This document shows positions 37,574-64,000 of a stretch of DNA of 64,000 nucleotides, one piece after another (the first letter of the stretch is position 1; each line of letters opens with the position of its first letter). This DNA is from Eledone cirrhosa (Eukaryota): NCBI GenBank assembly GCA_964016885.1, contig OZ024742.1, forward strand, positions 344,534,001 to 344,598,000. Direction: 5' to 3'. The translations under genes and the position numbers were made by a program. The notes below the pieces were generated by a model that was given only the letters and a program-made list of their open reading frames with translations, made no database searches and was not told the DNA's origin.

Positions 37574-37619
<46 letters not shown>

Positions 37620-38770: not shown

Positions 38771-38922
<152 letters not shown>

Positions 38923-39951: not shown

Positions 39952-40017
39952 TATTTTATCTGATGAAAGCGCACCATAATTTGCCTTGGTTGCCTTTGAA
40001 ATATATATAATAAAATA
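39952..40017 (+). ncRNA. Minimal hammerhead ribozyme, duplicate
   Basis: Copy of 8820-8885. Confidence 0.88.
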
Positions 40018-40717: not shown

Positions 40718-41056
40718 ATGGACATGTCACAAACGACAGAAGCCGAGATTTCAGAGCTGCGGGCTATGATCAGAGAGCGGGCTGGTCAAATTAAAGCCCT
40801 CTCGAATCAAGTAGAGAACTTGACCTTTCAAACACACCGGCGACGCTGCAACAATCGATCCAGGCCTTTTCACAGTCGAAGATCCAGTAGTCCCAGGCAA
40901 AATCGTGTGCCTGGAAACCTCTGTTGGTATCACACAAATTTCGGCGCACAGGCATCTAAGTGCAAAGCCCCGTGCTCTTTCCGGAATGCCACCCAGGGCC
41001 TAGCGACGACGTTCACCCCTGGTACTGTAAAGAAAAGTCGTCTATTTTTTTATTAA
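40718..41056 (+). pseudogene. gag: Truncated Gag, duplicate
   Basis: Same translation as 9586-9924. Confidence 0.75.
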
Positions 41057-42341
41057 CGACCAGGCGACAGGCATCCGATACCTCGTTGATACAGGAGCCC
41101 AGGTCAGTGTTATTCCGGTTTCACTGATCTCGGGCAAAAGACACCCAACCCCATCCTTTCTGCAGGCAGTGAACCAATCGTCAATTCCGACTTTCGGGGA
41201 GAAGTCTCTGACCCTCAATTTAGGCCTGAGGCGGCGTTTTCAATGGGTGTTCGTCGTGGCAGACCTGCCGACCCCGATCCTAGGAGCCGATTTTCTCCAC
41301 CACTTCAACCTTCTGGTGGATATGAAGAACCGGAGGCTTATTGACACCACCACAAACCTCACTGTGAGAGGTATATTTACGATGCAATCCACAGTGAGCC
41401 CTGTAATTCGCCAGTCAGAGCCTTCGCGGTACAACGGCAATCTCCAGAAATACCCAGACATCACTCGCCCGGTATTTAAGGATGGTCCAATTAAGCATAG
41501 TGTCACACACCACATCGAGACAAAGGGACCACCCACAGCTGCCCGACCAAGGAGACTGCCTCCAGACCGATTGAGAATCGCCAAGCAGGAGTTCCAACAC
41601 ATGCTGGACCTCGGAATCATTCGCCCTTCCTCCAGCAACTGGTCTGCACCCCTACACCTTGTTCCAAAAAAAAACGAGAATGATTGGCGACCATGTGGGG
41701 ATTATCGTGCACTTAACAATTCTACAGTGCCCGATAATTACCCTGTACCTCACCTGCACGATTTTTCTGCCTCTCTGCAAGGCGCACGTATCTTTTCCAA
41801 GGTAGATCTGGTGCGTGCATATAACCAGATACCTATGGAGCCTGCAGACATTCCGGAGACCGCAATCACAACACCGTTCGGTTTATTCGAATTCCTGCAA
41901 ATGCCGTTCGGTCTGCGCAACGCTGCACAAACTTTTCAGCGGTTCATTGACACCGTGTTACGCGATCTACCCTTCGTATACGCGTATATTGACGACGTAC
42001 TGGTGTCAAGTGCTTCCGAGAATGAACACGAGAAGCACTTAGATCTCCTTTTCCGACGTTTGGCTGAGTACGGTATCATCATCAACCACAGCAAGTGCCT
42101 TCTCGGCGTTCCTTCACTGTCCTTTCTCGGGCACATCATCGATAAATACGGCATTCGTCCACTTCCCGAGAAAGTAGAAGCTATCCGCAGTTTTCCCGCA
42201 CCTACATCACTTCGGAAACTGCGTGAATTCCTCGGTCTGGTGAATTTTTATAGGCGGTTCATTCCTCATTGTTCCGACGCAGCCAGACTCCTCACGGACC
42301 TTCTTCGTAACCGGACTCGCAAAACGAAGAGATCACTCTAA
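41055..42341 (+). pseudogene. pol: Pol protease + RT, duplicate
   Basis: Same translation as 9923-11209. Confidence 0.93.
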
Positions 42342-42379
42342 GCGAGGAAGAATTAACATCTTTTAACCGCCTGAAGGAA

Positions 42380-44110
42380 ATGTTGGCAAACGCTTCCATG
42401 CTCGTTTTCCCCTGGTCTGGCGCTCCTCTTTCGCTGCTAGTGGACGCATCAGACACGGGGGTTGGAGGCGTTCTACAACAATATGTCGACGGCGTGTGGC
42501 AACCCTTATCCTTCTTTTCTAAGCGGTTGCAACCGGCAGAAACGAAATACAGTACCTTTGGCCGCGAACTCTTGGCAACCTATCTTTCGGTTAAGCATTT
42601 TCGGCACTTGCTCGAACGATTAGATTTCGTGATTTACACGGACCATAAACCACTAGTTTATGCGTTCCGTACCAAACCTGATCGACATTCACCGAGAGAA
42701 CTCCAACACCTGGATTTTGTCTCCCAATATTCAACTGATATTCGGCATATCAAGGGATCAGACAACGTAGCAGCCGACGCCCTGTCCCGAATCCAGCTGA
42801 ACGCAATACATGTGCATTCAGGCATCGACCTTCAACAAATCGCAGCTGACCAAGAGACTGACGAAGAGTTTATGAAACTCCGAGATTCGCCATCTCTCAA
42901 GTTTCAGCAAGTTCCCATTCCTTCTTCTCCGGGACAAATTTGGTGCGACCTTTCTACCGGTCATGAACGACCGTACGTACCACAGATGCATCGTCGACAA
43001 GTTTTTTCTGCTTTACACTGCGTGTCTCACCCGGGAATCCGGGCTACACAGAAACTTATCTCTGCTCGTTTTGTGTGGACTAACATTAACAAGGACGTGT
43101 GCGACTGGTCCAGGAGCTGCATTGCCTGCCAGAAAGCCAAAGTCCACAGACACATCAAAACTCCACTCGGCACATTCGCGCAACCTGATGCACGTTTTCA
43201 TCATGTGCATATCGACATCGTCGGACCTCTACCACCATCACAGAACTACACACACTTGCTCACCTGCATCGATCGATTTTCTCGTTGGCCTGAGGCTTTT
43301 CCCGTAAATGATACCTCAGCAGAAACAGTCGCTAAAACTTTGGTTTTACACTGGGTATCACGTTATGGCGCCCCAGCGAAGATAACAACGGACAGAGGAC
43401 GCCAATTTGACTCTCACCTCTTCAGAGAACTGACTCGCCTGTTAGGATGTAAACACATCCGCACGACAGCTTATCACCCGCAAGCTAATGGTCTCGTAGA
43501 AAGATTCCATCGCCAATTGAAAGCTGCAATAAAAGCATATCCAGACAAGACACACCGGTTTGAATACCTACCACTCATCCTTCTGGGCATTCGTTCCACC
43601 GTTAAGGAGGAATTCGGACACACACCTGCAGAATTAGTCTACGGCACCACCCTGGTTCTACCTGGTCAGATGGCTGCTCCCATCTCTCCTCAGGATGTTC
43701 CAGACCCAGGATCATACGTACACCGTCTTCGACAATATATGTCTCATCTTGCTCCGGCAAGCACCCGTCAACAGAACACGGCCACACACGTACCTTCAGA
43801 CATTGATGATTGGACACACGTTTTCGTTCGAAACAACACCATCTCAGCTCATCTTCGACCTCCATATTCTGGCCCTTATCGTGTTCTAAAAAAATATCCG
43901 AAATATTTTATTCTCGATCTAGATGGTAAACAGAATTCTGTCAGCGTGGACAGATTAAAAAAAGCCATCATGGATACTGTTACAGTCTCTACACCAGAAA
44001 CTCAAACAGATTGCTGTCCCAGCGAGCCACCTGTTTCATCTCCAGTCACGAGAAGCGGACGACGCGTCCATTGGCCCGCAAAGTTGGCACAATATGTGAA
44101 TTACCGTTAA
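42380..44110 (+). pseudogene. pol: Pol RNase H + integrase, duplicate
   Basis: Same translation as 11248-12978. Confidence 0.95.
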
Positions 44111-45504
44111 CCTCAAGTGAGTTTCTTAATCACTCTTCGTGCAAAACATTTCCATTTTTCTTGTGTTTACTATTTCCAGTTTCAAATACAATGAACTTTC
44201 TGCTTGAACAATTGCAATTTTTAGTGACCATGTGCTCATGTCACGAAGAACATTATTTATTATGAACATAAACACTATTTAAGAACAAACATTGTGTATA
44301 TCATTGTGTATAACATTTTTTTTTCTTCTTTCTCTTGTTTTGCAAAATTTGTATTTTTCTTGTTCTGTAACATTGATTGTGTAATTGCCATAATTTTTAT
44401 ATACATACAAGGCGTGTACATATTCTGTTTTTCATGCACACTACAAAACCACATTTGTTTCACCTTTTTGTTCATACACTGAGCAATAGATATTTGTGTC
44501 CCTCTAACTCTTACACTACAAAATGTTTTCTCTTTGATCACGCATTTCACAAATCACAACATCAAAACACTGGCCTTCTGTTTTCACGTACACATTCACT
44601 CAATAGCTCGAGAATGCCTCGCTATTTTTTACCACATGCATTCGCTCAAGTCATATGCTGTGGAGCAAACTGTTACTTTTAGGCAGCATGTTTACGGCCA
44701 TTCAGTTCACACATTACAGTTATCTTCACTGCCCAGTTAGACTTTTTGTCACGCAATTCACAGGCAGCTCAACCGAAATTGCAACAGGCTCATTCATCAC
44801 GCCTGCATAAATCTGGTCAAAGTCATTTTATAGTTTATTTCTTTTTTCTCTTCCTGACACACACATCTTGCCATATCATCTCTACATCGACTCTGTCCTG
44901 TACTCGATGATCACAAAATTTCACAACGTGCTGGACAATCCTGGGGCTATTGCCATGACAAATGCACCACTGGCCCATTACTATACGATATTTCGCTCTT
45001 TTGTTGTACAAAAGAACTGGAAGAGGGCTAATGTACAGCCACCGGAAATAACAGCTGTGAAATATACAGCGCCATCTACCTGTTAGCTAGCTACTCAACG
45101 TGAAACAAAAGAACCCTTAGAACCTACCAGAATAAACGCCTACACATCGACTAAACAACAAAGGATTGTTCCTGTATAAATAGAGTGGTTCCTAACACTT
45201 TCGCCAGTCGACTTTTGGCAGAGTCAGCTAGCGCATCGTTGTTCCTTTACTCTGCCACGCTTTGTCACTCACACACGCATTGCCTTGTACCCCGTATCGT
45301 TGCTTCATGTGAAAATAAATAGCTGATCGAATTTACATCTCGCCTTGCTTCGTCCTTTCAACCTGTGCTTTCGTCTGTCCATCCTCAACAGTTCTTTTAA
45401 GGGCTATCTTCATATCTGATCAGACCGTATGCGATAACAGTCCTTCTAAGAACTATTCTCGGATCTGATCAGAAGTAGTGACTAGACTGACCAACTAGTG
45501 TCGC

Positions 45505-45545
<41 letters not shown>

Positions 45546-45576
45546 GTGTGTGTGTGTGTATATGTATACATGTATA

Positions 45577-45617
<41 letters not shown>

Positions 45618-45744
45618 CTTATTCATTTATACAGCTCCAACCGGGATTGATTGAAGCATATTCTATATTACATATACGATTGGCATTTTCCAGCCCGATT
45701 AGTTGAGCACTCTACAGTTTTCAGGAATTTAACCAACATACACC

Positions 45745-46445
45745 ATGGACCTTTATGAATTGGATTATTCAATCAAAAATATACCTACTCCTTCCAACAC
45801 AACTTATACCAAAATGCTTATAGATAAAATCGAACAAGTCGTTAAAAGAATGAGATGGAAGGCAATGGTTTACGATGGACTATTCAATGCTGATACCAAT
45901 GATTGTTTTGACATAAAATCTCGTAAATATCCACCTAGAATTAAAGACATGGCCAACTTCGAATTAGACCTTGTTAATTTAATTAGTGATATCAAATTTC
46001 GTAAGTACAATAATAACTTTCAAACTAAACTGTCTAACGATATTTCTAATTTAAAAAATTCTACAAACACCTTTGTTCTTTCTGATAAAACTAAAAATCT
46101 CTTTGAAGTATTTTGTATAACCAACTTTTAACTAATAGTATCACCAACAAATATCAATTAACTAATAATAATACCTACAATACTATTAATAAAGAAGCTA
46201 AAGAACTAGCTAGTTCTTTAAAAATAGACAACCGGATTGAAAGCCTAGCTAAGCGTAAAGAATATATTACCCTTAAAGACCATAAATTAGACTTTACTAA
46301 TCGACCTAGTTGTAGACTGATTAACCCGGCTAAATCCGAAGTTGGCCTTGCAAGTAAAAAAATCTTAAGAAAAATAATTCTCCAAATTATAACTAAGACT
46401 GACCTATCACAGTGGCTAAATACTTCCTCTTTTGTACAACTTTAA
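45745..46445 (+). pseudogene. Second Penelope ORF N-terminal fragment, duplicate
   Basis: Copy of 14613-15313. Confidence 0.85.
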
Positions 46446-49400
46446 CCATTGATGAAAGACGAATTGGCGGCGAAAAAATACTCTGTGTCGCCAATTCGTC
46501 CACAAACTACACCTTCTTCCCCACCTACATGGGTAAAAAACCCCAGAGAATATGGATAACCACCATCACCCCAAACATAAACTACTGGTGGTTACTAACC
46601 GGTTTCCTCAATTTAGACGAGGACAACCTCATTTCAATAGGAAAGGCATCCGGCGACGCGTTCAGTGGAACGAGTATCGAAGTTCTGACACAAATAAGGC
46701 CAGAACGTATCGCCCAAATCCCTGAGCGCGTCATGCTGGATGACCGTACCCACCTCAACATTATTGTGGAGGGTAGGCGTCCCTCCTGTTACCTCTGTGG
46801 CAATAGAGGTCACCTGAGGGTTGCCTGTCCCCAGCTCACACAGAAAAAAACACTGCTACCAACACCAACACCACCCCAACAACAACAAAATCGACCACAA
46901 CAACAACAAAAACCAACACCACCACAACAACAACAACAACAAACACGTGAAAAAACAACACAGAATACTGTCCCATCCAACCCCTCCCCACCCAAAACAA
47001 ATACAAAAACACACACACCGCAAACACTACCAGAAAACATACCCCTCCCACCCAACAAGGAAGACGAACCCCTTTCGTCGCAAGACGAAAAAGATCCCCT
47101 CCAAACAGTAAAAAGAAAGAAGAGGAGGCGCACCACAGACACACTTGTTAACTTTTACCCTCCCCAAGAGAACACAAACTATATACAAACCACCCCTCCC
47201 CGTCAAACAACACTAACTGCTACGCAAAAAAAGACCTTACAATATACATACATGAACACAGACAACAAAGAACTACTGAAAACAATTTCATCAAACCCTT
47301 CGGTCCAAACTGAAGGGCCTAACCTTATAACTGCTGTGGGACTACCTCATTTAAAAATGATTAAAGTCCCAATGAACCTTTATAAAACACTGAAAATAAA
47401 TTTCACGGAGGACGTGCCCCCCCCCCCTGCGCCAACCCAATCATCCGCGTCCTCCTAAAAAATTTCACCCCACCCCACCCAGACACCCACTCAACCACAA
47501 ATACTCCAACCCCACAACACACTGATGCCCCTACACTTCCACAAACCACCACCCCACCCAACAACCCATCCCCAACCAGCATGGAAATTGAGCGGCCCGC
47601 TTCCCGGGACGCAGAGAGGTAAGTGCCTTTCCTCCTTACCACCAACATGGCTGTGCTAAGAGTAGGGTGTCTAAATGCGCGTGGCCTGGGCTCATCTTGG
47701 AAGCAAGCAATGCTTCTAAATGATGTCAGGTCACGATCTATAAATGTGATGGTTATCTGCGAGGCCCGGATCAGCAACATGCGACAGCTAGCCCCCACCT
47801 TTGACGACTTTGAGATGCACGCATCTCTCTGTCAGCCCGGAGGTGGGGTTGGGTTGTCGTTCTACTGCAAAAACATCTGGGTCTTGCCACACAGATAGTT
47901 CACTTGGACCCAGGGGGTCGACTAGTGGTGCTGGACCTTGGCAGTGGTGAAGGTGGAGCCTTTAGGCTGGTAGCCGCATATGCCCCTTTTGGGACAGAGC
48001 GGCCCGACTTTTTCCAGCGTCTGGAGTCTTTTCTAGGGACGTCCCGTTCCCTGCTTTTAGTGGGGGACTAGAATGGTATCCTGGATGCACGTTGGTTCTA
48101 TGCAGGGGCATGTCCCGATAGAGAGGGGTGCAACAGCCTCAAGGGGTTACACGGCCGATTTGACCTGGCCGATAGATTTCGACTAGATTTTCCGACGGTG
48201 CCAACCTTGTCTTGGTAAAATCGCAGCGGATCATCTAGGTCGTACCTAGATAGGTTTTTAGTTAGAAATAAGGACAGGGTCTTTTTAAGTTGTCCAGAAA
48301 TGCTCATGGTTGGCTATTCAGACCACAAGTTGGTGACCTGCATGGTCAACCTTGATAGAACGCATAGACAGGGCCCCGGTTACTGGAAGCTCAACTTGTC
48401 CTTGCCGGCAAGTAGAGCTTACAGGGATCGGATTAGTACGTTAGTTAAGGAACGGTTGACTGGAGCGATCGTCAACAGCAGGTGGTGGGTATCTCTAAAG
48501 AGAGAGATTAGAGTAGTCTCGATAGAATTTAGTAAGGTTCTAGCTGCGGATAGGAATAGGAAGGAAAGGGAGCTAATAGATAGAGTAGAAGAGGCAATTA
48601 GAAGCGGCGACGTGGCCAGAGTGCTAGCGTCGAGAACGGCTTTGAGCCAGTTTTTCGACGCGAAGCACGAAGGCTGCGTTGTCCGAAGTAAAATACGTGC
48701 TCTATGGAACGAGGGGACCAAAGCTGTTAGCTGGGCCCGCGTGACAGAGGCCAAGAGTGGTACTAAATCCACCATCCGGTCTTTGCGAGACCAGGATGGA
48801 CGGGCGATCCTTGAGCCTAGGCAGATGTGTGAGGCCTTTCAAAGGCACTTTGCCCGACTGTTCGGGAGGGGCGGGGAGACGGTTGGGGATGTGGACTTCG
48901 GTCCATACCTCGACGGCCTGCCGCGTCTCTCGGACAGGGAGGCGAAGTCCTGCGAGGAGCCGATTTCGGCCGCTGAGATAGAAGACGTGCTGAGCCAATG
49001 CGGCAAAACGCAAATCCACGGGTCTCGATGGTCTTCCATACGAATTATATCTAGCTATGCCGGACTTGTTCCCCGATCTCCTCGAGGCGGTCTACTGCAA
49101 CTGGCAACAGAACAGGAGAATTCCCTGTACTGTGACCAAGGGCGTAGTCACGCTAGTGAGGAAGGACGAGAACAAGGGGGACGAAATAAGTAACTTCAGG
49201 CCCATAACTCTGCTAAATACAGAGTTACGGATTTTGGCCAAGGTGCTAGCAAAGAGGTTGGTGCTTGTCGTGGGCAACATGGTGGGATATGCGTAGACAT
49301 GTGCTATCCCGTCCAGGTCCATCCATGACAACCTCCACCTCATGCGATACATCATAGCGAGGGTTTGGAACGAACCCGGCTTTGGTGGGGCTCTGATCAA

Positions 49401-51325
49401 CTTGGATCAATCTAAGGCATTCGATAGGGTCGACCATTATTACCTGGATGCGGTGCTAGCGGTGGCAGGCTTCGGACCCGTTTTCAGGGGCTGGATCACT
49501 GCTATGCACAGCAGCCGCATCTGCTCTAGGGTCAAGGTGAACGGCTACCTCTCGGAGCGGTTCAAAATCGCGCGGTCCATCCGACAAGGGTGCCCTCTCT
49601 CCTCCCTTCTGTATGTGTTGACTCTCGAGCCACTACTGCGGAAGTTGGAGTTGTTGCAGGGCATCCCTTTGGAACCGGGATTGCGGAAAGCGGTGTCGGC
49701 CTACGCCTATGATGTGACAGTAATGGTGTCGACGGCCTCCGAATTCGGAGCGATCGGCACCTTACTGGAGGAGTACGAAAGGTTCACAGGGGCTAAGCTG
49801 AACCGGGACAAGTCGATCGGTTTGCAACTCGGCACGTGGAGGGGCAGACCGATGTCCTCCGATGGCGTCGTCGGACGCTGGACGGAGGGCCCGGTGAAGT
49901 TGCTCGGGGTCTGGTTCGGACCAGACCTCCAGGTGGAGAAGAACTGGGCGGAGGTTACGTACAGGGTGTTTGCACTGACCCAAAAGTGGGCCAGATGCAA
50001 ACTATCCCTGAAAGATCGTGCGTAGGTGGCGAACACCTATATAGCGTCCGTCATCTACTACCGCCTGACCGTAGTGCCTTGCCCAAGGGAAAACCTCGCC
50101 AAGATGGAGCGCGCGCTCTTCCAATTCCTTTGGAAGAGGCGGGCTCCCTTGGTGAGGAGATCCATCTGCTGTCAACACCCTTCGAAAGGAGGGCTGGGGA
50201 TGCCGTGGCTAATGATGCGTAAACACGCATTAAGACTACGGCACCTCCACGTATTCCTCACCGGTCAACCGGTATGGGCCTCGTTTGTGAGACGAACCTT
50301 TCCCAGACTCGTCTCACTCACCGAGCTGCAATCCTGGGTCAAGCAAAGACCGAGAAAACTGGGCGTCTGGCACACTGAGTGTGCCCAGGCGCTCACCGCC
50401 CTCTGGCAGGCGGATCCGGATCAGTGGAGACTCCACCGCAACATTCTATAGAGGGCTGGTACGCAGCAGGTGCGACGACGCCCTCGGAGAAGCCCTAGAC
50501 ATGGAGGAAGACGAACTGGCCAGCCTGTTCGGTAGGACATTCAGCCCGGGACCTATGGACAACTTCCAGAAGTCCCTGGCCTGGCAGTGCTACCGAAGGG
50601 CTCTACCTGTTCGAGAAAAGCTCTACAGACACGGGCGCCCGGGTAGGGACCCCGCCAAAAAGATCTGTCCCAGATGCGTGTGCGACGAGGAAACCGTTGC
50701 ACACACATTGGTACACTGCTCGGGCGTAGTCGACCTGTGAGGCTATGTCGAACAACTGCTGTCAAGGGTGGGACCGATCCGGTTGACCACTGAGTCTATT
50801 GTAATGATCAAGCCGCCTCCCCCCTTCAAAGATGGAGGAGAGGCGGTGTTTCTGTGCCTAATAGCCATGGTGAAAGAAGTTGTATGGTGGACGCGTCTGA
50901 AAGGACTGAGGTCAGGCACCTTTCTCTCTGGCCAACAACTGGTCCGTTTCTTCCGATATCATTTCGGAAGAAGGATCAGGATGGAGAGAGATGTGCTCCA
51001 CCCCAGTCGTTATTATGAAAGGTGGGTGAAAGTGGCGAGAATGGCCCGTGTGAATGGGCCTTCTCTTTACATAAGCCTGTAGGTGGAAAAGAGGAAGGAA
51101 CGAGGGAGCACCCCTCTCTGTGCTCCTGAGGAGAAGGGTTGCACACTTTTTTCGGGGGTGTGTGCGACCCCCCAAGGCGCCTCCTCTCTATTGAGGATTT
51201 TGTTATAAATTTTATTTTTTGTTACATTTTATTTTATTTTTATATTTTGTTATTGCCTCCTCCTTATTGAGGACGCCTTGTTTTGTAAACTCCCCCCATT
51301 GTACTGGTGGCAAATTAAAGAAACA
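46437..51325 (+). mobile_element. Tx1/L1-clade LINE with intact 3' end (decayed ORF1 and ORF2)
   Basis: Continues past the junction through KGGLGMP and the zinc finger CPRCVCDEETVAHTLVHC to a stop at 51082, then a 3' UTR ending ATTAAAGAAAC. Confidence 0.92.
47647..51082 (+). pseudogene. LINE ORF2 (APE-RT-zinc finger), disrupted
   Basis: Fragments in several frames, from MAVLRVGCLNARGL to ...GPSLYISL. Confidence 0.9.
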
Positions 51326-51775
51326 TATCTTTTTTGTAATTGATCTTTGGGATGCTTCAACTTTCATGATACTTTGTTTCGTGTGGGGAGACCACAGTGG
51401 ACAACAGTATTCAGGGTGGGGTCAGGCAAAAGTGGAGAAGAGAAGGATAACAGTGTGGATATCTCTCGACTGGAAGGTTCTGAGAATCCAGCAACACATT
51501 CTGCGGGCCATGTCAACATTGGTGTTTATATGAATGGCCCAGCTTAAGTTGTTGTCCACAATTACTCCCAAGTCTCTGATGTTATTGGGTGCCACGAGAG
51601 TTTCACCTGAAGGAAGAGATTATGGTAATTTCAGGGTATCATTTTTTCCAAAGTGGATTAACTCAACCTTATCGTCATTCAACAGTATACTGTTCTTTTC
51701 TGCCTATTGGATAGCAGCCAATAGGTTTGACTGAAAGCAAGTCCGGTCACTCACCTCATTGATGACCGTTTGGAG
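51326..51775 (-). pseudogene. CR1/L2-like LINE RT C-terminal fragment
   Basis: Minus-strand translation RDLGVIVDNNLSW..HI....EYCCPLWSPH....KVEASQR, with stops. Confidence 0.8.
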
Positions 51776-51841
51776 TAATAATACCTTATATAGTAATAAT
51801 AAATGTGAAGACTAAAATCCGAAGTGGGCTCGACAAGATTA

Positions 51842-52753
51842 TCTATATATATAAAACTGAGGATGTCTGTGTATGTGTGAGTTTGAATCCCTAAAACTCG
51901 AGAAACATCCAACCGACCGTTTTCAAACTTTACACATGCAATACTTATGTTTCAGGAAGTGTTCTGAGCAGGAACAAATTCAAATTTTCAATGCCCTAGG
52001 GACCGCATTAGGCAATTTAGCGATCTCTCTCTATAATTCTTAGTCTTTCTCTTTTTAGATAGATACATACATATAACGTCGCGCCCTTGTAATATCTGTC
52101 TGTATGTATGGCTGTCTGCATTACGTCACTTCCCTGAGGATGTGTGTGTGTCTGTGTCTCTGAGTTTGAATCCCTAAAACTCGAGAAGTACCCAACCTAT
52201 TTTATTCAAACTTTGCATGTGTATTACTTATGTTTCTGGGAGTGTTATGCACATAAACAATTCTACTTTTTGATCTCCTAAGGCCCGCATTAGGTTAAAA
52301 ACTGCGTTTTTGAAGCTTTTTATAGGTTTTTGAGGCGTTACGTCAGACCGATTTCCTTGAAAATGTAACTATGTATTAGTCTCTTCTTCATACCGTGAGC
52401 AAAGAATATCCACCTTTTTTTATGGCCTAGGGCCCGCATTAGGTGAAAAACTTCATTTTTTCAGCTTTTTAGGGCTTTTTGGAGGCGTTACGTCTAGCTT
52501 ATTTTCCCGAAATTTAAAGGCATATTATGCACATAAAAAAATTTATTTTCTTGATCCCTAGGGCCCGCATTAGGTAAAAACCTGCATTTTTCCTGCTTCA
52601 TCGAGGAAAATCTTAAAAATTATCCAGCCATCAGGGTATTCGGTTTATTTTCTTTACATATTGTCCTTGCATGCAGTTTTTCCACGATTAGGTCTGATGG
52701 CGGCCCGCGTGCCAAAATACCTTATCCCGTGCAACGCCGGGTACCACTGCTAG
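51842..52753 (+). mobile_element. Non-autonomous Helitron-like element
   Basis: 5' TCTATATATATAAAAC; 3' hairpin CCCGTGCAACGCCGGG followed by CTAG. Internal repeats: GAGTTTGAATCCCTAAAACTCGAGAA x2, CTAGGGCCCGCATTAGG-like x4. Confidence 0.75.
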
Positions 52754-52995
52754 CATATATATAAACCCGCAGAGCAAATTTTCAGAAGATCCCGTTAAGG
52801 GTGAAAGTTGCGATTCTTTGCTTAAACATTAATCTGTTATTTTAATGTATATATATATATGCAGAGGTTATATTTAATTTGTTGGGATTCAACAAGCTTA
52901 AAAATTTTTTATAACTGATATAAAGCACTCAACAGATTAGTGGAGTAAATATACAGTATATTAATCAATGGAAACTATATTTATAAAACCATAAT

Positions 52996-53061
52996 TATTT
53001 TCTTATATATATTTCAAGGGCAACCAGGGTAAATTATGGTGCGCTTTCATCAGATAAAATA
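52996..53061 (-). ncRNA. Minimal hammerhead ribozyme, intact core
   Basis: TATTTTAT-CTGATGA-AAGCGCACC..GGTTGCCCTT-GAAAT-ATAT-ATA|AGAAAATA. Confidence 0.85.
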
Positions 53062-53193
53062 CAGATTTGTTTTATAAATAAATATTGATCTACCCGGAAT
53101 AAAGACAACCTCAACTGTTGAAATTCGCGAATTTCAACCGTTGAGGTTGTCTTTTTTCCGGATACGTCAATATTTATTTATAAAACAAAACTG

Positions 53194-53259
53194 TATTTTA
53201 TCTGATGAAAGCGCACCATAACTTACTTTGGTTGCCCTTAAAATATATATAATAAAATA
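53194..53259 (+). ncRNA. Hammerhead copy with G12A substitution (probably inactive)
   Basis: Same fold as 52996-53061 but AAAA replaces GAAA at 53240. Confidence 0.7.
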
Positions 53260-53687
53260 ATTATGGTTTTATAAGTATAGTTTCCATTTATTCATATATT
53301 GTATGTATATATATATATATTATAATTGAATATAAGAGAGAGATAAAAACAGATATAAACAAAAATGTGCGTTATTTTATATTTGCATGCTATTCAGTCT
53401 TCTGAGATACTTAGAAGTGGAGGGATTACTAATTTTACACCCACAGATGAACAAAGAACTGGTAATTTATTACTTTAAATTGAGTCTGACAAACCATATT
53501 GTTAATAGTTAGTATTTTTTCACCCTAGCGAACTTGGTCCCCTACAATTTGAACGCACATACAGTATGTATATATCTGTGTTTATCTCTCTTTTATATTC
53601 AATTCAATTACACGGCCCAGAAACACTTCTTTCTTTGAGCTATTTAATTGTAAGAGACTATTTTGAGTTTCTAACTCAATATATACC

Positions 53688-53771
<84 letters not shown>

Positions 53772-53873
53772 GTATTGAAGTTTCCGTTCAAAATTGAAAA
53801 GGTCATAGGAGTGAAGAGTGCTCTATGTAAGTACCAGAGCTAAAATTTAATGTATAATAAACAATACAATATA

Positions 53874-53949
53874 ATTACCTCATTACCAGAGGTTTCCCGA
53901 ATAAGACAAATACAAAAAACGTCCTCATTCGTTCATCGGACAAGGCAAT
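53874..53949 (-). ncRNA. Type I hammerhead variant (CCGAUGA core)
   Basis: ATTGCCTTGT-CCGATGA-aCGAATGAGGAC..GTCTTATTCGg-GAAACC-TCT-GGTA|ATGAGGTAAT; 10-bp stem I with 3 G-U pairs. Confidence 0.8.
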
Positions 53950-54710
53950 TTATAACATAGTGAAATATTTGAAAAATCTCCCCAAGAAAGGCAAAAGTTT
54001 AACGGGCAAAAAAATATATAAATAAAAGTAATGCAAGAGATATATAAAAAATAAGTAAATATAGTTAGGGTATGTGTATAAATGTGTGTATATTCACTCA
54101 CAAATGTACATATGTGTGTATGTACAAATGCCTGTGTATAGTGAAAATGTCTGCGTAAGTACATATATGAGGGCAAGCATATCAGTGTATGTGTGACCAC
54201 AAATACGTATATAATATAAGTTGAAAAAGAAATTGTAAGATAATATAGTTAACATACATCCAGATTCAGGTAGTAAATATATACACATACAAGTATGAAA
54301 GCACCCGTATAAACACACAGACACGCGCGATCACACATATGCGAATAATATAGAGGGAAGGGAGTGTATTAGTCAAAGGAGTGTCAGTCTGAGGCTCGAT
54401 ACATGTATAAAAATGAAACAATATATGAGAATGAAAAAATTTTTTTAATCAAAGAGAAAGTAAGATGGAGGGGTTATCAATTATAAATTAACACTAGAAA
54501 AAAAGAAAACAAACATAGGTTCGTACACACACATATATATATATATAAATATATAAGTAAGATGTATGGTAGGTCGTATGTGAATCGCGATGATCACGTC
54601 TGACCTACCAAATATGTGACGGTAGCTAGTTAAGCTCTATGCGTATACGCAGAGCAGAAATATTAGTGAACAAGAACAAAGGAACAATTATGACATTATA
54701 ACAAATTTAT

Positions 54711-54757
54711 TGCCGACAGCCGTTTCGTCCGACCACATGGTGGGACTTTTCAAGGCA
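54711..54757 (-). ncRNA. Minimal hammerhead, U3-A8 covariant core (UUGAAAA)
   Basis: TGCC-TTGAAAA-GTCC(caccatgtggtc)GGAC-GAAAC-GGCT-GTC|GGCA. Confidence 0.82.
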
Positions 54758-55945
54758 TACAACATGTGACTGTAAGGTCATTATCTACATCAACGTATCA
54801 CTCAAGGCTAGCAGTTTGAAATTGTGGTATACATCAGCAGCTCGGCTTGTATAGTTGGGGTCTATATTCTAAGGGGGCTCTTTTATATTAGTTGTCGGGG
54901 TCAGGGATTGAAGGTTAAAAATTAGATAATATATAATTTACGCATTAACAGTAAACTAAAAGACTTGGGGTCCCGTAGAAGCACCTTAAATCCCTCAATA
55001 AGTGCATAAAGTTTACAGGCTCCAATAAACCTACTAAACTAGAAGAAATTAAGAGGCTAATAAAATAAAAAATAAAAATATAAAGTTTCCCTAAAAAAAT
55101 ATATAAAGTTTCCTATGAAAATCCTTCGAGAGAAAAAAGTTTTTTCCGAAAGAAAAAAACTTTCTTCCCCCGAGATCACGTTTACAAATTTCAGAAAACT
55201 TACGAAGTTTTGATATTCCCTACTAAGTTGAAAGAAACTAATCAATTAAAGGTTAATTCAAAGAGCCTTCTATAGTTCTCTCAGAAAAGGCCCCTTTAAT
55301 ATTTTTAATAGGAACCTCCTCCGAGAGACCCTTCGAAGAATTAAAATTTTAGAGAGCCTTTAAGGATATATATAAAAACGAATTGAGGAAAACTATACAT
55401 TAAAAGTTAAAAATTACGGTATTTGGGATATCCGAGGAATTTTCAAAGGGCTGCTTCAGCAGATACAACTTAGGCATAATAGATACAATAATTTAAGTAA
55501 TTTAAGTAATTTAATTAATTTAATTAGGGAGCAATTCAAAGAGTTTATCAAGTTGGGCAAGATTAAAGAGAGTGGTAAATAAGAAAATACATAAGCAAAA
55601 AGACAATAATTATAAAATGTATTTTTAAGAAGGTATAAGGTAGCTTCAGTAATCTAACAATGTATTATCACAAAAAATTATTATAAAATTATTGATACAG
55701 GATTAACAAAGACATAATAATATATATTCCTGCCTAATTAACAAGTAATCAAAACACTATTAACAGTCAGGCAAAATTAGCTCAGGGATATCCCGCGCTC
55801 GGATACTTTACACACATACAGCAACACATAGGATTAGCACAGACACAATGGTATATTCCTGCCTAATTAACAAACAATCGATTAACAATTGATGGTCAAG
55901 AAAATGTACTCAGGGATATCCCGCGCACGGATATTTACATACATA

Positions 55946-58448
55946 TTTAGCAGTATTGGTTGTAGATGTTATCGCCACTTTAGCAGGGTGGTAGAATCAG
56001 TGGTCGTTAGTTGCCAGTGTGGTAAGTGATAGTATCCTCGTTGGATTATCTTGTTGACATAGACGTGAGGGAAGGTCCCTCGATCTATTTACCATCTATT
56101 TACAATATTCCTTTCGTCAGGTCGCCAATTCCAGCAGCATGGATTAAAGATGTCATTGAGACAAGAGTAACATAATAACGACTTCAACCGCAGTAATTAG
56201 AGATGAAAGGTTTGTTTATTTATATGGTTGAAGTTACAGATAAAAAGAGGTTACATTAGGGAATGTGCCATTGCGCCGTTAAGCCGGCGAGGCTAGTTGT
56301 GCAATATCTCACTGTTACATTATGCGTGTTGCTGGCTCGAAGTTTCTGGTACCTGAGAGAGATTCTTCAAATCTTCGCGGGGAATTTCTTCCTCAGGGCG
56401 CGTAGGGTTACATCCTCTTCTACTGGCGCTGATTGGCTGAACTGAGCCAAATCACGCACAGAGAATGTATGTGAGCCCGCGGAATGTAGGTCACTACATC
56501 ACCTCCAACCAGATTTTCAGCCGAAAATCGATAACGAAGAAACCAAGGACCCACATATTATTAAATCAGCAAGAACAAATGCTGAAAGAGCACATCAGTG
56601 AAAAAATAATTGAGCAGAAGGTTGCATGCAAGAACAAAAAATTAGGCGCTACGGGCCGTGTTGAGCCGCTGTGTCAAATGACCAATTGTTTTGTTGTTTA
56701 TACGTGACCGCCAAAGGTCTAACAAAAAAACGGATAAAGTCTGACATGGGCGAAGTTGCCGTTCTTGCATTAAATGTTAATGGTAAGCGTTGTACCAGTA
56801 GCTGTGAACGAAGCTAGTATGGTAGTTTACCAGTGCTGGCGAGAAAATGATGGCCGCCAGATGTATTGTCGAATGTGCTGTGGAGCCAGGAAAAAAATGG
56901 CTGGTTGCTTTGTAAAGAACAAAAGGCAAGTTTAATCTGTAGGTGGGTTGCAGTGTAAATTCCATAATTCGGGCGAATCCACAGAAGTGGCCGAAATGCT
57001 AACAAGTCCAGTTCAATTTCTTGCTTTCCCAGCGAGTCGGGCAAAAACAACAAGACGGATGGCCGTCATGGACGATCAGTGTGCAACGAGATGCGAAGCT
57101 GTTTGAGTTCAGCTGCAATGTATTCTCGTGTTGCGGTGCCTGTTTGAATCCAGTGGATTAAGCTCTGTGAGCTGCTAGCATGTGACAGCATCTCAACCAG
57201 GTGAAAAGGGACTCGCAGAATATTACGTTTGAAGAACATATACCAAGAACAACATGTTGGTGTGTGATAAAGAAAATGTGTGCATATGCAGGCATGTAAA
57301 ACAGCAAAGAATGTGAATGAACAAAAACCATGAGCAAGAAAATAGCAAAAGAGCACAAAACAAGTAAATGCATTCTACTATGTGAATGTAACAAACTGAT
57401 AATTCAAAGTCAATCTAGGGGAGCAGAGAAATTGCTCAATAATTTCAAAGTTTTTCAAAGTCAAATAGTTCACACATCACCAGTGTACAGACACTAGTTC
57501 TGTCCGAAAACTGAAAAAGAAGTATGTTAATGCCATTAGGGGTTAGATGTATGGTGTTTTTGTGAGATTTCGTGGCCATTTGACCGTCCCGCCACACGGT
57601 AGTGTTGCTTATTGTTAAAGTAATGTCAAAGAATCTTCTGTAGAGTAGGAGTCACCAAATATGGCAGTCACGTCTGACGCCATAATGGTGAGAAAACTAC
57701 TGTCTCAATTTCTCGCGTCCCTGTGGTAACGAGACAGAAGGTATGGTGGTTGCGTCGGTAAAGTTACAAGCCGTTTTGAAATTTCCGATGTGTGGTGGTT
57801 GGCGTCGGTAAGGTTATGAAGCTGCCACTCACTGTTCCCTGTATTGGTCAGTGGTTAAACAACGCTGTCGCTGCTGCTGTCATTGTTGTTGTCAAGCGTA
57901 GCCATGATATGTCGGTAGCCATCTTGAAATGTTTTCGTGGCGAAAAAGTTTTTGAAATACTGCTAATTTTTCAAAAATCTTAAAAGGAATATTCTGGATT
58001 TTCGCAAGTTGCGACGTGGCAATACAAGTTAAACTGAATGAATAAGGGCTGCGTGATATTCTTACGTCGGGGTCACCACTTTAGCAGTATTAGTTATAGA
58101 TGTTATCGAGATACGAGTTACATAATAATTATTTCAACAGCAGAAATTAGAGATGAAAGGTTTGTTTATTTATATGGTTGAAGTTACAGATAAAAAGAGG
58201 TTACATTAGGGAATGTGCCATTGCGCCGTTAAGCCGGCGAGGCTAGTGGTGCAATATCTCACTGTTACATTATGCGTGTTGCTGGCTCGAAGTTTCTGGT
58301 ACCTGAGAGAGATTCTTCAAATCTTCGCGGGGAATTTCTTCCTCAGGGCGCGTAGGGTTACATCCTCTTCTACTGGCGCTGATTGGCTGAACTGAGCCAA
58401 ATCACGCACAGAGAATGTATGTGAGCCCGCGGAATGTAGGTCACTACA
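55946..58448 (-). mobile_element. Non-autonomous LTR retrotransposon (TRIM/LARD-like), 2.5 kb
   Basis: LTRs 58080-58448 and 55946-56498 (TGTAG...CTAAA); PBS at 58064-58078; purine-rich GGTTGGAGGTGA at 56499-56510; 4-bp TSD CATA; no long ORF. Confidence 0.88.
58064..58078 (-). promoter_or_regulatory. tRNA-Trp primer-binding site
   Basis: TGGTGACCCCGACGT, complementary to the 3' end of eukaryotic tRNA-Trp. Confidence 0.88.
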
Positions 58449-59795
58449 CATACAACAGATTGAACAGTACTGGTGACCGTGTGGGCGCGATATCCATTAT
58501 GCGTATGTAGTCATCTGCATAGCTCCAGGCACAGCTGGTGTTGTTTAAAAGTTCATAGTTCACGGATCAACTGGGATTCACTATCAGATGCGTGGACTCT
58601 CTGGGAGATGTACTTGTGGTTCCAATAGCTAGTGGTTGCTGGGTGTGGTCCTTTCGATCTTTTAGTTTCAGGGGTTGCACGCTTTCGGCCGGTTCTAAGT
58701 CCAAGGTCTCACTACATAGGATGTATTGGTCTACATGCCATATTGGTAAAAAAACCAGTGTGGATTTGACTGGGGTGGTATATTACGAACTCCAAGCCCA
58801 CACGCGGCTGGTCAAAAGCGAAGGGCTGTCCCCTCTTTGTTTGCTGTATGAGTCGGTTCCAGCTTAGATGGTGGTCGTGTTATCCATATTCCGTCAGCCC
58901 TGTATATTCAAGACAGATCAGGGTATATATTTGCGGGTATGGTCCGGCGTCTAAGTTATCCAGAGGGTCTCACTTGTGGTACTTTCAAGTTCGCATGTCA
59001 TCTCCCGGTTAAGACTGCGCATGCTCGGTGAATCTCATGCATGGAATCTTAGGGTATCATATTACACGGGGTGACTAGCAGAAAATATACATTCTATGCT
59101 ATCGCGCACGCGCTGGCCTGTGGCTACGACCATGTCCAGTCTCGGGTAGTAGCAGACAGCAGGTAGACCAGCTAGACACACCCCTGTTCAAGGGGCACAA
59201 CCCCTAACTTATCGAGTGGTCAGACTTCAAGGGAGTCAACTCTCCAAGCCCATTAAGTCGACTGTGGTAAAATACAAAAATTCCTATTAGTAAAGAACTA
59301 ATCACTGATAATAAAGAACTAACTCAAAAGAATGGGGAGGGGCATCTATTTGGGCGGGGGTTTACTAAGGGAGGGGGTGGGGTGAGTGGTTATAGTCAGG
59401 GAGCGGCCGCCATACTGGGTGTTTTGTTACTGTTTCCCTGGGCATGTTCTCGAGTTTGTTGACATACATCTCCGACTGCACCTTCCCATATTAGTCTACG
59501 TGGGTCCAGGCACTCACAATGTCCTACATCGCAGGCATCAGCTGCCCCCAGGGTGCCCAGCAACAATGTTGCTTCTACGGGACCCCAAGTCTTTTAGTTT
59601 ACTGTTAATGCGTAAATTATATATTATCTAATTTTTAACCTTCAATTCCTGACCCCGACAACTAATATAAAAGAGCCCCCTTAGAATATAGACCCCAACT
59701 ATACAAGCCGAGCTGCTGATGTATACCACAATTTCAAACTGCTAGCCTTGAGTGATACGTTGATGTAGATAATGACCTTACAGTCACATGTTGTA

Positions 59796-59842
59796 TGCCT
59801 TGAAAAGTCCCACCATGTGGTCGGACGAAACGGCTGTCGGCA
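59796..59842 (+). ncRNA. Minimal hammerhead, U3-A8 covariant core
   Basis: Identical to the minus-strand copy at 54711-54757; GUC cleavage triplet at 59836-59838. Confidence 0.82.
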
Positions 59843-61167
59843 ATAAACTTGTTATAATGTCATAATTGTTCCTTTGTTCTTTTTCACTAATATAAATATA
59901 TATATATATATAAAGACGTACAGACAAAAGCACATACATGCGTACATACATACAGAGGCGCGCATACATACACACGAAGCACATATATATATATCGGCAC
60001 ATGTATATCTAATCACACGTACGTACGCGATTATATATATATATATACATATACACACATACATACATACATATACACATATATTCACCCATACACACAC
60101 ACACGTATATATAAGTATGTAAAAAACATAGATATAAAAACACACATACACACACATATATACACACACACGCACACATACGGAGACGTTCGTATACATA
60201 TACAGAACGCATACACACACATACACACTCACACGCATAGATACAAATTATAAACCAGTCGTATGAATAAATGAGTACAAATATAAAAGCGGCTGCGAAA
60301 CAACAGAATATATCTGGAGTTGAAAACGCAGGTGACATGTTATCAGGTAATGAAAGAAAATGGGGAAGTAAAATGTGGAATTGTGAAGATATTAGGTAAG
60401 TGAATCAAAGTAGGGGGGGGTGTCACAGGTGGATGTGAAGTAAAAATAAAAATAAAAATAAAAATAAAAATAAAAATAAAGTTAAAAATGAAAGTAAATC
60501 AGAAAGAGAAGTCTGTAAAGAGGATAATTTAAGGAAAGTGAAGAACAAGAGTTTATGGAGGATAAGTATCTGAAAGTGAGTTAAGTTTATATGAGCTGGA
60601 AAGCAAGTGTGATTACGTGTGTGGGCAACTGGTGAAAATTTCTGTTTTTGCACTTAGGCAGGTTATTGGTGATTTAAGGTTCTGTAAAATCCAATATTTT
60701 TCACTTATGCAGAGTGTGCATCTTCTTGTTCCTCTTGCATATTCTTTCGATTGGTTCAAAATTGACCAATCCAATTCTTATAGTATCTATGTGTTCTAGG
60801 GAAATGTTTATCTAAGAGCTCTAGGAATTTTTTGCCTACATTAGTTTTAACTGAATCTGTATGTTAACTATATTATCTTACAATTTCTTTTTCAACTTAT
60901 ATTATATACGTATTTGTGGTCACACATACACTGATATGCTTGCTCTCATATATGTACTTACGCACACATTTTCACTATACACATGCATTTGTACATACAC
61001 ACATATGTACATTTGTGAGTGAATATACACACATTTATACACATACCCTAACTATATTTACTTATATTTTTATATATCTCTTGCATTACTTTTATTTATA
61101 TATTTTTTTGGCCGTTAAACTTTTGCCTTTCTTGAGGAGATTTTTCAAATATTTCACTATGTTTTAA

Positions 61168-61243
61168 ATTGCCTTGTCCGATGAACGAATGAGGACGTTT
61201 TTTGTATTCGTCTTATTCTGGAAACCTCTGGTAATGAGGTAAT
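61168..61243 (+). ncRNA. Type I hammerhead variant (CCGAUGA core)
   Basis: Inverted partner of 53874-53949; GUA triplet at 61231-61233. Confidence 0.78.
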
Positions 61244-61320
61244 TATATTGTATTCTTTATTATACATTATATATATATATATGTGTGTGAGAAAAACCAC
61301 AGACCCTCCATCTCAACTCT

Positions 61321-61358
61321 ACTTTTGAAAAGCAGAAGAACTGCGAACCCGGTAGAGG
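61321..61358 (+). ncRNA. Degenerate UUGAAAA hammerhead copy (GAAA>GAAC, weakened stem I)
   Basis: ACTT-TTGAAAA-GCAG(aagaa)CTGC-GAAC-CCGG-TA-GAGG. Confidence 0.5.
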
Positions 61359-61421
61359 AACCAAATAAATAAATATATATATATTTTTTAAAATAAGACT
61401 CCAGTTGCATTTTCGATTTCA

Positions 61422-61511
<90 letters not shown>

Positions 61512-61628
61512 ACATCTTGTTTCAGACTAGCTATTTAAATGGTAAGAGCCCCCGATCTTTTAAAATATACCTCTACTCTACTATCCCAAGTATCTAGTAC
61601 TCTGTTGAGTAATGGTTTAAGTAGTTCG

Positions 61629-61664
<36 letters not shown>

Positions 61665-62090
61665 GGGAGACATACACACACGCACACACACATATATATG
61701 TGTTTATGCGTGTGTGTGTGTATAGGGTGGTGAAAAATACCTATAATTATACTTTATAGTAATAGATAATAATTGAATACATCGAGGTGTATATCCCTGG
61801 AGACGCTGCAATATGGAGAAACTTGCCGGGGAATCGAACCACGGATTTCTCGTAGTCTGGACGAGAGTATTTTGCCACTACGCCAAAGGGTCTCTGGAGT
61901 AAATTACGATTTTCTAAAAGATGTAAAAGTGTAGCTAGAAAAGTAAACCAATTTGGTTGACTTACGAATCAGTGGGAAATTTGAGATGCGTGGTTCGATT
62001 CCCCGGAGACGTCTCTGTCTATTGATCTGTCTCAAGAATGACTTTACCCGATTTCAAATATCATATATAGTTATCAACTATTATTAACAT

Positions 62091-62280
62091 GGCGATGGAT
62101 TGGCAGTATCGGTAGATGGTCGGACGCCATGCTTTGCAGCATAGAGTTACGGCCCTTTACGGTCTGAGTTTAAATCCCGCTGAGGTTAACTTTTTCTTTC
62201 ATCCTTATGGGTTCGATAAAATAAAGGACCAGTAATGCACTGAGATAATTGCTGGTCTTGTGCCAAAAATAGAAACAATT
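62091..62280 (+). mobile_element. tRNA-derived SINE (resembles octopus SINE families)
   Basis: A-box-like TGGCAGTATCGG, B-box-like GAGTTTAAATC, body CTTTCATCCTT..GATAAAATAAAG.ACCAGTAATGCACTG. Confidence 0.75.
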
Positions 62281-62288
62281 GTAAACAT

Positions 62289-62475
62289 GGCGGCGGATTG
62301 GCCGTATCGGTAGAGGGTCTCACGCCATGATTTGCAGCATAGAGGTACGGCCCTTTACAGTCCGAGTTCAAATCTGGCCGAGGTTAATTTTGCCTTTCAT
62401 CCTTACGGGGTAGATAAAATAAAGTACCAGTAATACAGTACGGTATTTGATGGCGTTGTGCCAATAGTAGGAACA
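62289..62475 (+). mobile_element. tRNA-derived SINE, tandem second copy
   Basis: Homologous to 62091-62280; B box GAGTTCAAATC. Confidence 0.75.
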
Positions 62476-62635
62476 TATATTAACATTATTTTCGTTGGGG
62501 AGAATACATTTTTCCATTCCGTCCTCTTCTCACTCTCCATCTTGTCATTTCATCTTTTATTTCTCCTTCTATCGTCTGATGAAGGACTAGTGACCAAAAC
62601 GTTAATACACTTTTCCTATTATATCAAGCATTAAA

Positions 62636-62855
62636 GAGTGTTGGACTGGTAGTATCGGTAGAGCGTCGAACATCATGTTTTGCGACATATAGTTACGGCT
62701 CTTTAGGTTCTGCGTTCAAATCACGCCGAGGTTAGCTTTGACTTTCATCCTTACAGGGTCGATAAAGCAAAGTACCTGTAATGCACTGGGCGAATACAAT
62801 TGAATTTTCCTCCTCTAACAAGTGTTGGTTTTGTGTCAAAATCAGAAACCATTAT
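62636..62855 (+). mobile_element. tRNA-derived SINE, third copy
   Basis: GTTCAAATCACGCCGAGG...TTTCATCCTTACAGGGTCGATAAA. Confidence 0.75.
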
Positions 62856-62943
62856 TTCAAGCATTAAACTAATATATTTCTCTATTGTACTGTGTCGATT
62901 GCTTTGTTATTTCTGTTTACTTCTTACATCCATACACACATGA

Positions 62944-62987
<44 letters not shown>

Positions 62988-63105
62988 CTGAGCTCTTGTC
63001 ATTTCACAGCTAGTTTCAGACTGGATCGAGCTCTTGAAACGGCAATAGCTCAGCTGTTGGGCCTCGATGTTTTTTAATATTTTCATACACTACAATACTA
63101 CAATC

Positions 63106-63150
<45 letters not shown>

Positions 63151-63218
63151 AAAAAGGGATGAAATCGAAAATGCAACTGAAGTCTTATTTTTTTTAAAAT
63201 ATATATATTTATTTGGTT

Positions 63219-63256
63219 CCTTTACCGGTTTCGCAGTTCTTCTGCTTTTCAAAAGG
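63219..63256 (-). ncRNA. 38-nt minimal hammerhead, U3-A8 core, palindromic stem III
   Basis: CCTT-TTGAAAA-GCAG(aagaa)CTGC-GAAA-CCGG-TA|AAGG. Confidence 0.78.
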
Positions 63257-63291
63257 TGAGTTGAGATGGAGGGTCTGTGGTTTTTCTCACA

Positions 63292-63333
<42 letters not shown>

Positions 63334-63364
63334 ACATTATATATATATAATCTACACCTCCCCT

Positions 63365-63438
<74 letters not shown>

Positions 63439-63611
63439 AGGAGTCGACAAAACAGCAGTACAAAAGGTCTTATCAGTTTCGCACTTTAAATGGAATATAG
63501 CTGTATGCGTGTGCCTGTGTGTTTCTGGACTGTGTGTGTGTTTGTGTGTATGCCTGTCTGGTTCTATGTGTTTGGAATGTGTATATGTTTGTGTGTGTCT
63601 GTCTGTCCGGG

Positions 63612-63657
<46 letters not shown>

Positions 63658-64000
63658 AGTATGTGTGTGTATACAATGCATGTGCATACATATACACTGA
63701 TTACTTCTCATACATTGAACTTTTCGACAATTGCTATCAATATGCTTCAGTACAGCTCTCTAATGAGATATTGCCTGGCTGTCCTGAATATTTAATACAT
63801 TTTATTAGGCCGCAGTTCTGAGAACTTAATGCAGAAAAAAATAATTAACAAGCAGTATCCTCAATGGAATGTTCAATTAAGTATTGGTGTTAAGTGGTCT
63901 GTGAATAATCGACGTTCAAAGAAAAATAATGAAGTCACTTCAAATATTTTTTCAATATCTGTCTTACAAACTCTTGTAAATTATTGGTTATTGCTTGTGA

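Follow-up and report, generated by a model that had tools for sequence, protein, structure and literature searches.

Nested inverted repeats with hammerhead motifs in Eledone cirrhosa, interpreted as insertions of Penelope-like elements

The 64,000-nt stretch of the Eledone cirrhosa genome considered here (contig OZ024742.1, positions 344,534,001 to 344,598,000; hereafter the window) contains two nested elements, both flanked by inverted arms that carry hammerhead ribozyme motifs. The outer element is a 5′-truncated and internally deleted Hydra-type Penelope-like element (PLE), as judged from its sequence, and the inner one is likely a second, non-coding Penelope-family insertion into the 3′ region of the first. 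The combined reading, in which the inverted arms of both likely result from the insertion process, is considered highly probable. The nested locus is likely not a new class of element.

Nested inverted repeats and hammerhead motifs

Self-comparison of the window by BLASTN recovers an outer inverted repeat (53845-54272 / 60848-61272, 96.3% identity) and an inner one (54660-54983 / 59570-59893, 99.1% identity, E 5e-163). Counted by global alignment, the outer arms differ by 10 substitutions over 421 aligned bases and the inner arms by 3 over 324. The two arm types are unrelated (best E 0.17), which bears out the first-pass annotation of two sequence-unrelated, nested pairs. Each element reaches further on the left side than the arms given there, by a tail that is not mirrored on the right (Table 1).

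An Rfam scan of 44000-64000 returned no hammerhead family among 33 matches at E ≤ 1, and a dedicated type I descriptor was therefore used, allowing C3-G8 or U3-A8 and either U or C at position 4. Such a search, with core variants allowed, had been proposed in the first-pass annotation. In its strict form the descriptor finds four sites in the 64 kb, one in each inner arm, one in the left outer arm and one at 63252; the relaxed form adds the right outer arm, so that all four arms are matched with one further site. Dinucleotide shuffles contained a match in 0/1000 cases for the outer arm, 1/1000 for the inner arm and 2/200 for the whole region. All four motifs read outward, as previously claimed, with the predicted cuts listed in Table 1.

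The inner motif has a U3-A8 core, a G10.1-C11.1 pair and a GUC triplet. It is the predicted minimum-energy structure, with helices I and II formed, and its helix III can pair with itself through a match that includes G-U pairs (dimer energy -9.7 kcal/mol). In the outer motif, position 4 is C, the triplet is GUA and the G10.1-C11.1 pair is missing; the right copy shows a further mismatch, where stem II begins at its base. A variant of it with the canonical U4 core, read by hand, occurs in 379 X8 reads with a loose end at 53917. The U4C change has been described as lowering activity in vitro while still permitting viroid infectivity (PMC3088659). U3-A8 is a published PLE hammerhead variant, and minimal PLE hammerheads are described as inactive when present as single motifs (PMC4209133). 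The arms carry putative type I hammerheads, whose cleavage is a prediction.

The outer and the inner element

A 54-residue minus-strand frame (60777-60616) identifies the outer element. A profile-free full scan of 1.84 billion proteins matched it to 83 at E ≤ 0.001, the longest relevant of which shows, by eye, reverse transcriptase (RT) motifs and a C-terminal endonuclease; a weak GIY-YIG match was present in 3 of 14 scanned relatives. A word-based search with the same remnant gave no matches among three candidates, a blank that means little for decayed sequence. These relatives also exposed a 635-residue PLE frame within the window (3432-5339), which was taken as an independent query in order to avoid circularity. 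The profile built from the best 120 of its 489 matches aligns with the outer element at 60860-60777 (profile positions 497-524, E 1.6e-7) and 60780-60595 (positions 644-703, E 7e-12). The first piece, from the linker, is matched by 117 of the 120 profile proteins (main bin) and the second, from the endonuclease, by 113.

About 120 codons are absent between the two remnants, including the linker zinc motif and the GIY-YIG core. Neither the RT core nor the GIY-YIG catalytic motif is present in this copy, which keeps about 90 codons of the open reading frame (ORF). The endonuclease remnant retains CxxC-E and CxH, with S at the conserved N position. Among the 120 profile proteins, RWK-like motifs occur in 82, DKT in 94, CxCX5C in 104 and CxxC-E...CxH in 114; RWK, DKT, CxCX5C and CxxC/CxH around E and N are described as marks of the Hydra clade (PMC8557442). 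The RWK, DKT and CxCX5C regions are deleted from the outer copy. The first-pass annotation saw no RT or endonuclease ORF inside the arms, which is correct for intact ORFs and overlooks the PLE protein remnants at 60860-60595.

Contigs of organisms B and C diverge from the window at 60776, 60798 and 60839, and hand translation of the letters beyond these points carries on the protein frame without the deletion. The ORF remnant and the left-arm hammerhead share the minus strand, with the hammerhead downstream. From the strand of the remnants and the continuation of the broken frame, the outer element is therefore read on the minus strand, in the order inverted arm, truncated ORF, 3′ region, direct pseudo-long terminal repeat (pLTR) with hammerhead, and 72-nt tail. 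It carries (TA)n at both ends, as in the Hydra clade, and, like endonuclease-bearing (EN+) PLEs, an inverted 5′-truncated copy at its 5′ end and a one-sided tail, the latter being optional in that group. The tail is covered by many contigs; 289 X8 reads stop fitting at 53844, while others continue. One X4 contig spans 54075-54377, across the outer arm boundary, and the region 59903-60594 separates the inner insertion from the ORF remnant. In linking the repeats to Penelope pLTRs, the first-pass annotation was right.

Two further Hydra-type sequences lie elsewhere in the window. The 635-residue stop-free frame belongs to a third, 5′-truncated PLE (2801-about 6440, repeated from 33933 onward) with direct and inverted pLTR copies and, near 6114-6215, a hammerhead-like motif with C4, GUA and a very long stem II. 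An N-terminal fragment of another Hydra-type ORF (14616-15307, profile positions 2-236) is followed by a zinc-knuckle ORF and then by a LINE-like (long interspersed nuclear element-like) RT.

The inner element (54556-59893) measures 2,831 bp without its long terminal repeat (LTR) insert, and has the marks of a PLE: a hammerhead-bearing pLTR, an inverted copy, a tail and a target duplication. A 12-mer flanking 54556-59890 is found solely at those two sites within 50102-64000, and implies a 104-nt tail on the left only. The 9-base core of this duplication occurs 8 times in the same interval, so that the duplication constitutes moderate evidence; both tail and duplication are read from one copy and one read joint. 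One contig joining 54503 to 59963 was considered as an empty-site record and rejected, being a single contig with a short side in simple repeat.

X1 contigs cover all 30 bins, X4 contigs 28 of 30 and X6 contigs 18 of 30, and contigs of X4 and X6 cross the arm-body junction. Summed X1 contig depth is 4,814-6,756 over 55045-55803 and 1,247-2,052 over 58587-59598, with the lowest single contigs among those listed at 9-13; such sums are not usable as copy number and are read as many copies, declining 5′-ward. No ORF was found in the inner body, and no protein match with the Hydra-type profile or Pfam. Pfam on 18 read-through frames gave two weak, unrelated matches. The segment 54982-55400 (+), which resembles PLE RT motifs by eye, was dropped, as it had no profile support. 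A metagenome scan for the inner motif gave no matches.

The inner body is itself interrupted by an LTR element of about 2.5 kb, with a 4-bp target duplication (55942-55945 / 58449-58452) and a primer-binding-like site from 58078, presumably of tRNA-Trp identity. X1 and X4 contigs connect 55940 directly to 58448; other inner copies therefore lack this insert. Its LTRs differ at 2/306 positions in their core and 11/369 overall, against 3/324 for the inner arms, and the idea that the insert is older than those arms was rejected (p 0.06). A 129-bp tandem duplication lies beside it (55699-55945), and X1 contigs joining 55824 to 58459 suggest that other inner copies have a single unit. A Gypsy-type LTR retrotransposon in (TA)n (9033-14374; LTRs with 4 differences in 476 bases) has a primer site resembling that of the nested element; translated similarity between the two was not found.

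Origin of the inverted arms

Each insertion likely produced its own inverted arm, by adding a second, short copy of the element's hammerhead-bearing 3′ end. By analogy with a lizard PLE in vitro, a PLE protein acting in trans would bind the pLTR RNA and nick AT-rich DNA. Reverse transcription would begin within the uncleaved RNA, with two alternative starting points downstream of the hammerhead, one yielding the long body with its tail and the other a short truncated copy joined to it head-to-head. Both ends would then be element 3′ ends, and for that reason both hammerheads would point outward. The outer element would have entered (TA)n, the inner element a TA tract of the outer 3′ region and the LTR element the inner body, an order that follows from the nesting; arm divergence does not date the outer against the inner insertion (p 0.16). 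The lizard protein is reported to nick AT-rich DNA on both strands and to start reverse transcription at two internal sites, both of them downstream of the hammerhead and separated by the sequence that makes up the tail (PMC11167929). The same source describes hammerhead mutants that insert normally in vitro and reports no RNA ends at the cut.

The first-pass annotation had instead suggested a possible non-autonomous class, in which transcripts of either strand form a panhandle with a self-cleaved 3′ end and are mobilised in trans by a Penelope enzyme; in the form weighed here the class is distinct, its inverted arms are fixed and the enzyme uses the cleaved end. In its favor, both families carry an outward motif in both arms, the inner body is repetitive with no ORF found, and a read-through transcript would form a long duplex. 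However, a DNA copy of a self-cleaved 3′ end would stop at the cut, whereas on both sides arm sequence follows the predicted cut, for 39 nt in the outer and 55 nt in the inner element, with the tails adding 72 and 104 nt on the left only; the inserted DNA was therefore not copied from self-cleaved 3′ ends. The predicted arm-arm duplex over the motif (-116 and -133 kcal/mol) is also far stronger than the local ribozyme fold (-17 and -18), so that a panhandle would hide the ribozyme, and each family provides one motif per strand, whereas single minimal motifs are described as inactive (PMC4209133). In the third PLE, the inverted arm (2801-3040 / 5865-6111) ends just before the hammerhead-like motif.

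Junctions differ between copies as well, although the records are few. In X1, contigs connect one outer arm straight to the other, the joined pieces measuring 49/49, 102/106 and 190/152 nt. Inner joints between opposite strands appear in X8 at 55158/59186 (61 reads) and 54642/59077 (53 reads), and neither coincides with the inferred restriction site. These joints, each weak by itself, are among the 15 of 43 listed. With the coding remnant in the outer interior added to these observations, a separate class with panhandles and self-cleaved ends is very unlikely. The requirement for an enzyme in trans survives from that proposal: these copies cannot encode their own PLE RT/GIY-YIG, and any movement therefore needs one supplied in trans. 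The argument that the same design in two families reflects a mechanism also stands, with the mechanism being the published PLE insertion pattern (PMC8557442; PMC3846280).

Related loci place the inverted design around coding DNA. Metagenome contigs, scanned with an alignment of 31 proteins, yielded 77 Hydra-type loci, of which 39 have a sense hammerhead outside the ORF (0/77 in each of three shuffles). These 39 include 35 with GUA, the triplet of the outer motif, and the core is CUGA in 37, CCGA in one and UUGA in one. Among the five inspected of seven inverted-repeat loci, L024, L058 and L062 have inverted arms of 171-188 bp with outward hammerhead cores around coding DNA (L024, 169-351 / 2197-2379; L062, 3-173 / 2021-2201), and the other two are ORF pieces. 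The three belong to one family, and L024 and L058 share flanks and were therefore counted as one locus. The inverted outward-hammerhead design thus also occurs around coding interiors. In L062 the left arm has a C4 core and the right arm U4.

Two explanations do without a PLE insertion. If the arms were terminal inverted repeats of a DNA transposon or fold-back element with chance hammerheads, the long, near-perfect inverted ends and the target duplication would be expected. One-sided tails, variable junctions, the RT/endonuclease remnant and a depth gradient along the 5′-3′ axis are not; no transposase match was found and the ends are not symmetric with fixed length, which makes this account very improbable. 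An assembly error joining high-copy repeats is suggested by a 19-kb duplication at 100% identity elsewhere in the window, and no read or contig spans the stretch. The stretch nevertheless lies outside that duplication, 3 and 10 substitutions separate the arms of the two pairs, and each nested insertion is bounded by a matching target duplication, so that such an error is most improbable.

Within the PLE reading, the nature of the inner element divides into two versions. It could belong to a genuine family of non-coding Penelope passengers, about 2.5 kb long, which related species share and which is copied in trans, having retained no more than a U3-A8 hammerhead pLTR and a structured tail of unusual length (104 nt); the probability given to this is just short of even. 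Alternatively, truncation before the ORF may have left only the 3′ part of a coding PLE whose untranslated region or spacer is very long, a version held at less than even probability. Depth is lower in the 5′ body than at the 3′ end, the gradient expected of 5′ truncation, and rotifer Pen1 spacers of 0.9-1.5 kb before the 3′ pLTR have been described (PMC3846280). An ORF-free body of about 2.1 kb is, however, long for such a region, and nothing upstream of 59569 appears among the matches listed.

Several observations weigh against PLE insertion with an inverted second copy. An inverted repeat is present in 7 of the 77 related loci, the design being uncommon in those short contigs, and the tails of 72 and 104 nt exceed the published 30-40 bp. 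For the origin of such inversions, one account favors self-priming on an antisense template (PMC3846280). The alternative joints rest on one contig each or on restriction site-associated DNA (RAD) reads with one start each, and the whole stretch is not spanned by any record. For the inner element, the target duplication lies in low-complexity DNA, and no protein remnant or partner ORF was found with the Hydra-type profile, the one used. Pfam adds nothing here, because it scores even the 635-residue PLE frame at 0, which renders its blank uninformative.

Neighboring features and known Penelope-like elements

Table 1. Coordinates of the nested elements and their parts within the window.
Feature	Position	Strand	Remarks
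(TA)n tract, left flank, likely target of outer element	53690..53772		sequence
Outer element, probable 72-nt one-sided tail	53773..53844	-	not found at right end
Outer element, direct (3′) pLTR	53845..54272	-	hammerhead core 53939, GAAA 53896, predicted cut after 53884
Outer element, 3′ non-coding region left of inner insertion	54273..54555	-	X4 contig
Inner target duplication, left copy, 9-12 bp in TA tract	54544..54555	+	12-mer match
Inner element, probable 104-nt one-sided tail, two predicted hairpins	54556..54659	-	
Inner element, direct (3′) pLTR	54660..54983	-	U3-A8 core 54753, predicted cut after 54715
Inner element, non-coding body, 3′ part	54984..55945	-	contains 129-bp tandem duplication; no profile match
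Nested LTR-type element without pol	55946..58448	-	LTRs 55946-56498 and 58080-58448
Inner element, body, 5′ part, 45% GC	58453..59569	-	protein match not found
Inner element, inverted pLTR copy	59570..59893	+	core 59800, predicted cut after 59838
Inner target duplication, right copy	59891..59902	+	
Outer element, probable 3′ non-coding region with simple repeats	59903..60594	-	repetitive in X1
Outer element, GIY-YIG endonuclease C-terminal remnant, Hydra-type	60595..60780	-	CxxC-E, CxH retained
Outer element, RT-endonuclease linker remnant	60777..60860	-	profile positions 497-524
Outer element, inverted pLTR copy	60851..61272	+	core 61178, predicted cut after 61233; then (TA)n

The right end of the outer element is abutted by one of two opposite copies of a ~150-bp element in TA tracts (61273-61440 and about 63130-63295). 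This pair carries a U3-A8 hammerhead motif facing inward, with a damaged GAAA in the left copy. Three copies of a ~200-bp repeat resembling a short interspersed nuclear element (SINE) occupy 62076-62819, and a degenerate hammerhead-like core lies near 62577, between the second and third. To the left of the outer element, two 182-nt arms that adjoin without a spacer form a 364-bp palindrome (52946-53309), part of which recurs at 8762-8959; a second palindrome is located at 6542-6906. The 19-kb duplication (1-18969 and 31133-50101) is either very recent or an assembly artefact; its copies lie on either side of a long array of minisatellite repeats (about 18968-33871), which also breaks up a LINE-like RT.

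The inverted truncated copy, the tail, the insertion of one PLE into another and the U3-A8 core have all been published. An inverted 5′-truncated copy often flanks a PLE unit, with a tail of 30-40 bp, and non-autonomous PLEs have been described (PMC8557442). A PLE inserted into another PLE has been shown, along with deletion derivatives whose pLTRs are inverted and pLTRs that enclose non-coding DNA (PMC3846280); further accounts report paired hammerhead motifs on opposite strands (PMC4209133) and animal retrozymes derived from PLE pLTRs (bioRxiv 10.64898/2026.07.22.740005). Outward hammerheads at both ends would thus be explained by known PLE insertions with an inverted 3′ copy. As to the role of the ribozyme, the two unrelated families described here have inserted DNA past the predicted cut, in agreement with the uncleaved RNA template seen in vitro. 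No paper on either family was found by title or abstract, although the supplements of PMC8557442 may list them. The locus adds Hydra-type families, and possibly a long non-coding PLE family, from an animal genome. Such a passenger family, if real, would be to PLEs what large non-autonomous derivatives are to LTR elements, and would offer a natural test of what a PLE enzyme requires of its RNA.

The outer element is closest to the Hydra-clade EN+ PLEs (Craig et al., 2021, PMC8557442), with which it shares the C-terminal CxxC/CxH endonuclease, a pLTR hammerhead, insertion into (TA)n, an inverted copy and a tail. It differs from them in keeping only ~90 codons, in its C4 hammerhead (1/39 of the related loci) and in a tail of ~72 nt. 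The Penelope elements of Adineta vaga (Arkhipova et al., 2013, PMC3846280) likewise display inverted pLTRs, a 9-10 bp duplication, PLE-in-PLE insertion, internal deletions and non-coding DNA; their spacers are described as unique host DNA, whereas the inner body here consists of repetitive sequence, part of which occurs in two other organisms. The minimal hammerheads of metazoan PLEs (Cervera and de la Pena, 2014, PMC4209133) resemble the present motifs in being type I with a short palindromic helix III, U3-A8 and opposite-strand pairs. Spacing within such pairs is given there as 100-700 bp, compared with 5.1 and 7.2 kb here, where activity is predicted only.

For the inner element, the nearest parallels are non-autonomous PLEs such as MRC1 (PMC8557442) and the non-LTR retrozymes (bioRxiv 10.64898/2026.07.22.740005), which are also non-coding and thought to depend on a PLE enzyme. 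Retrozymes consist of short direct tandem repeats; here the arms are inverted and kilobases apart, an arrangement unlike that of a retrozyme. The Chlamys partners mostly lack hammerheads, whereas the inner element, ~2.8 kb without its LTR insert, carries them in inverted arms.

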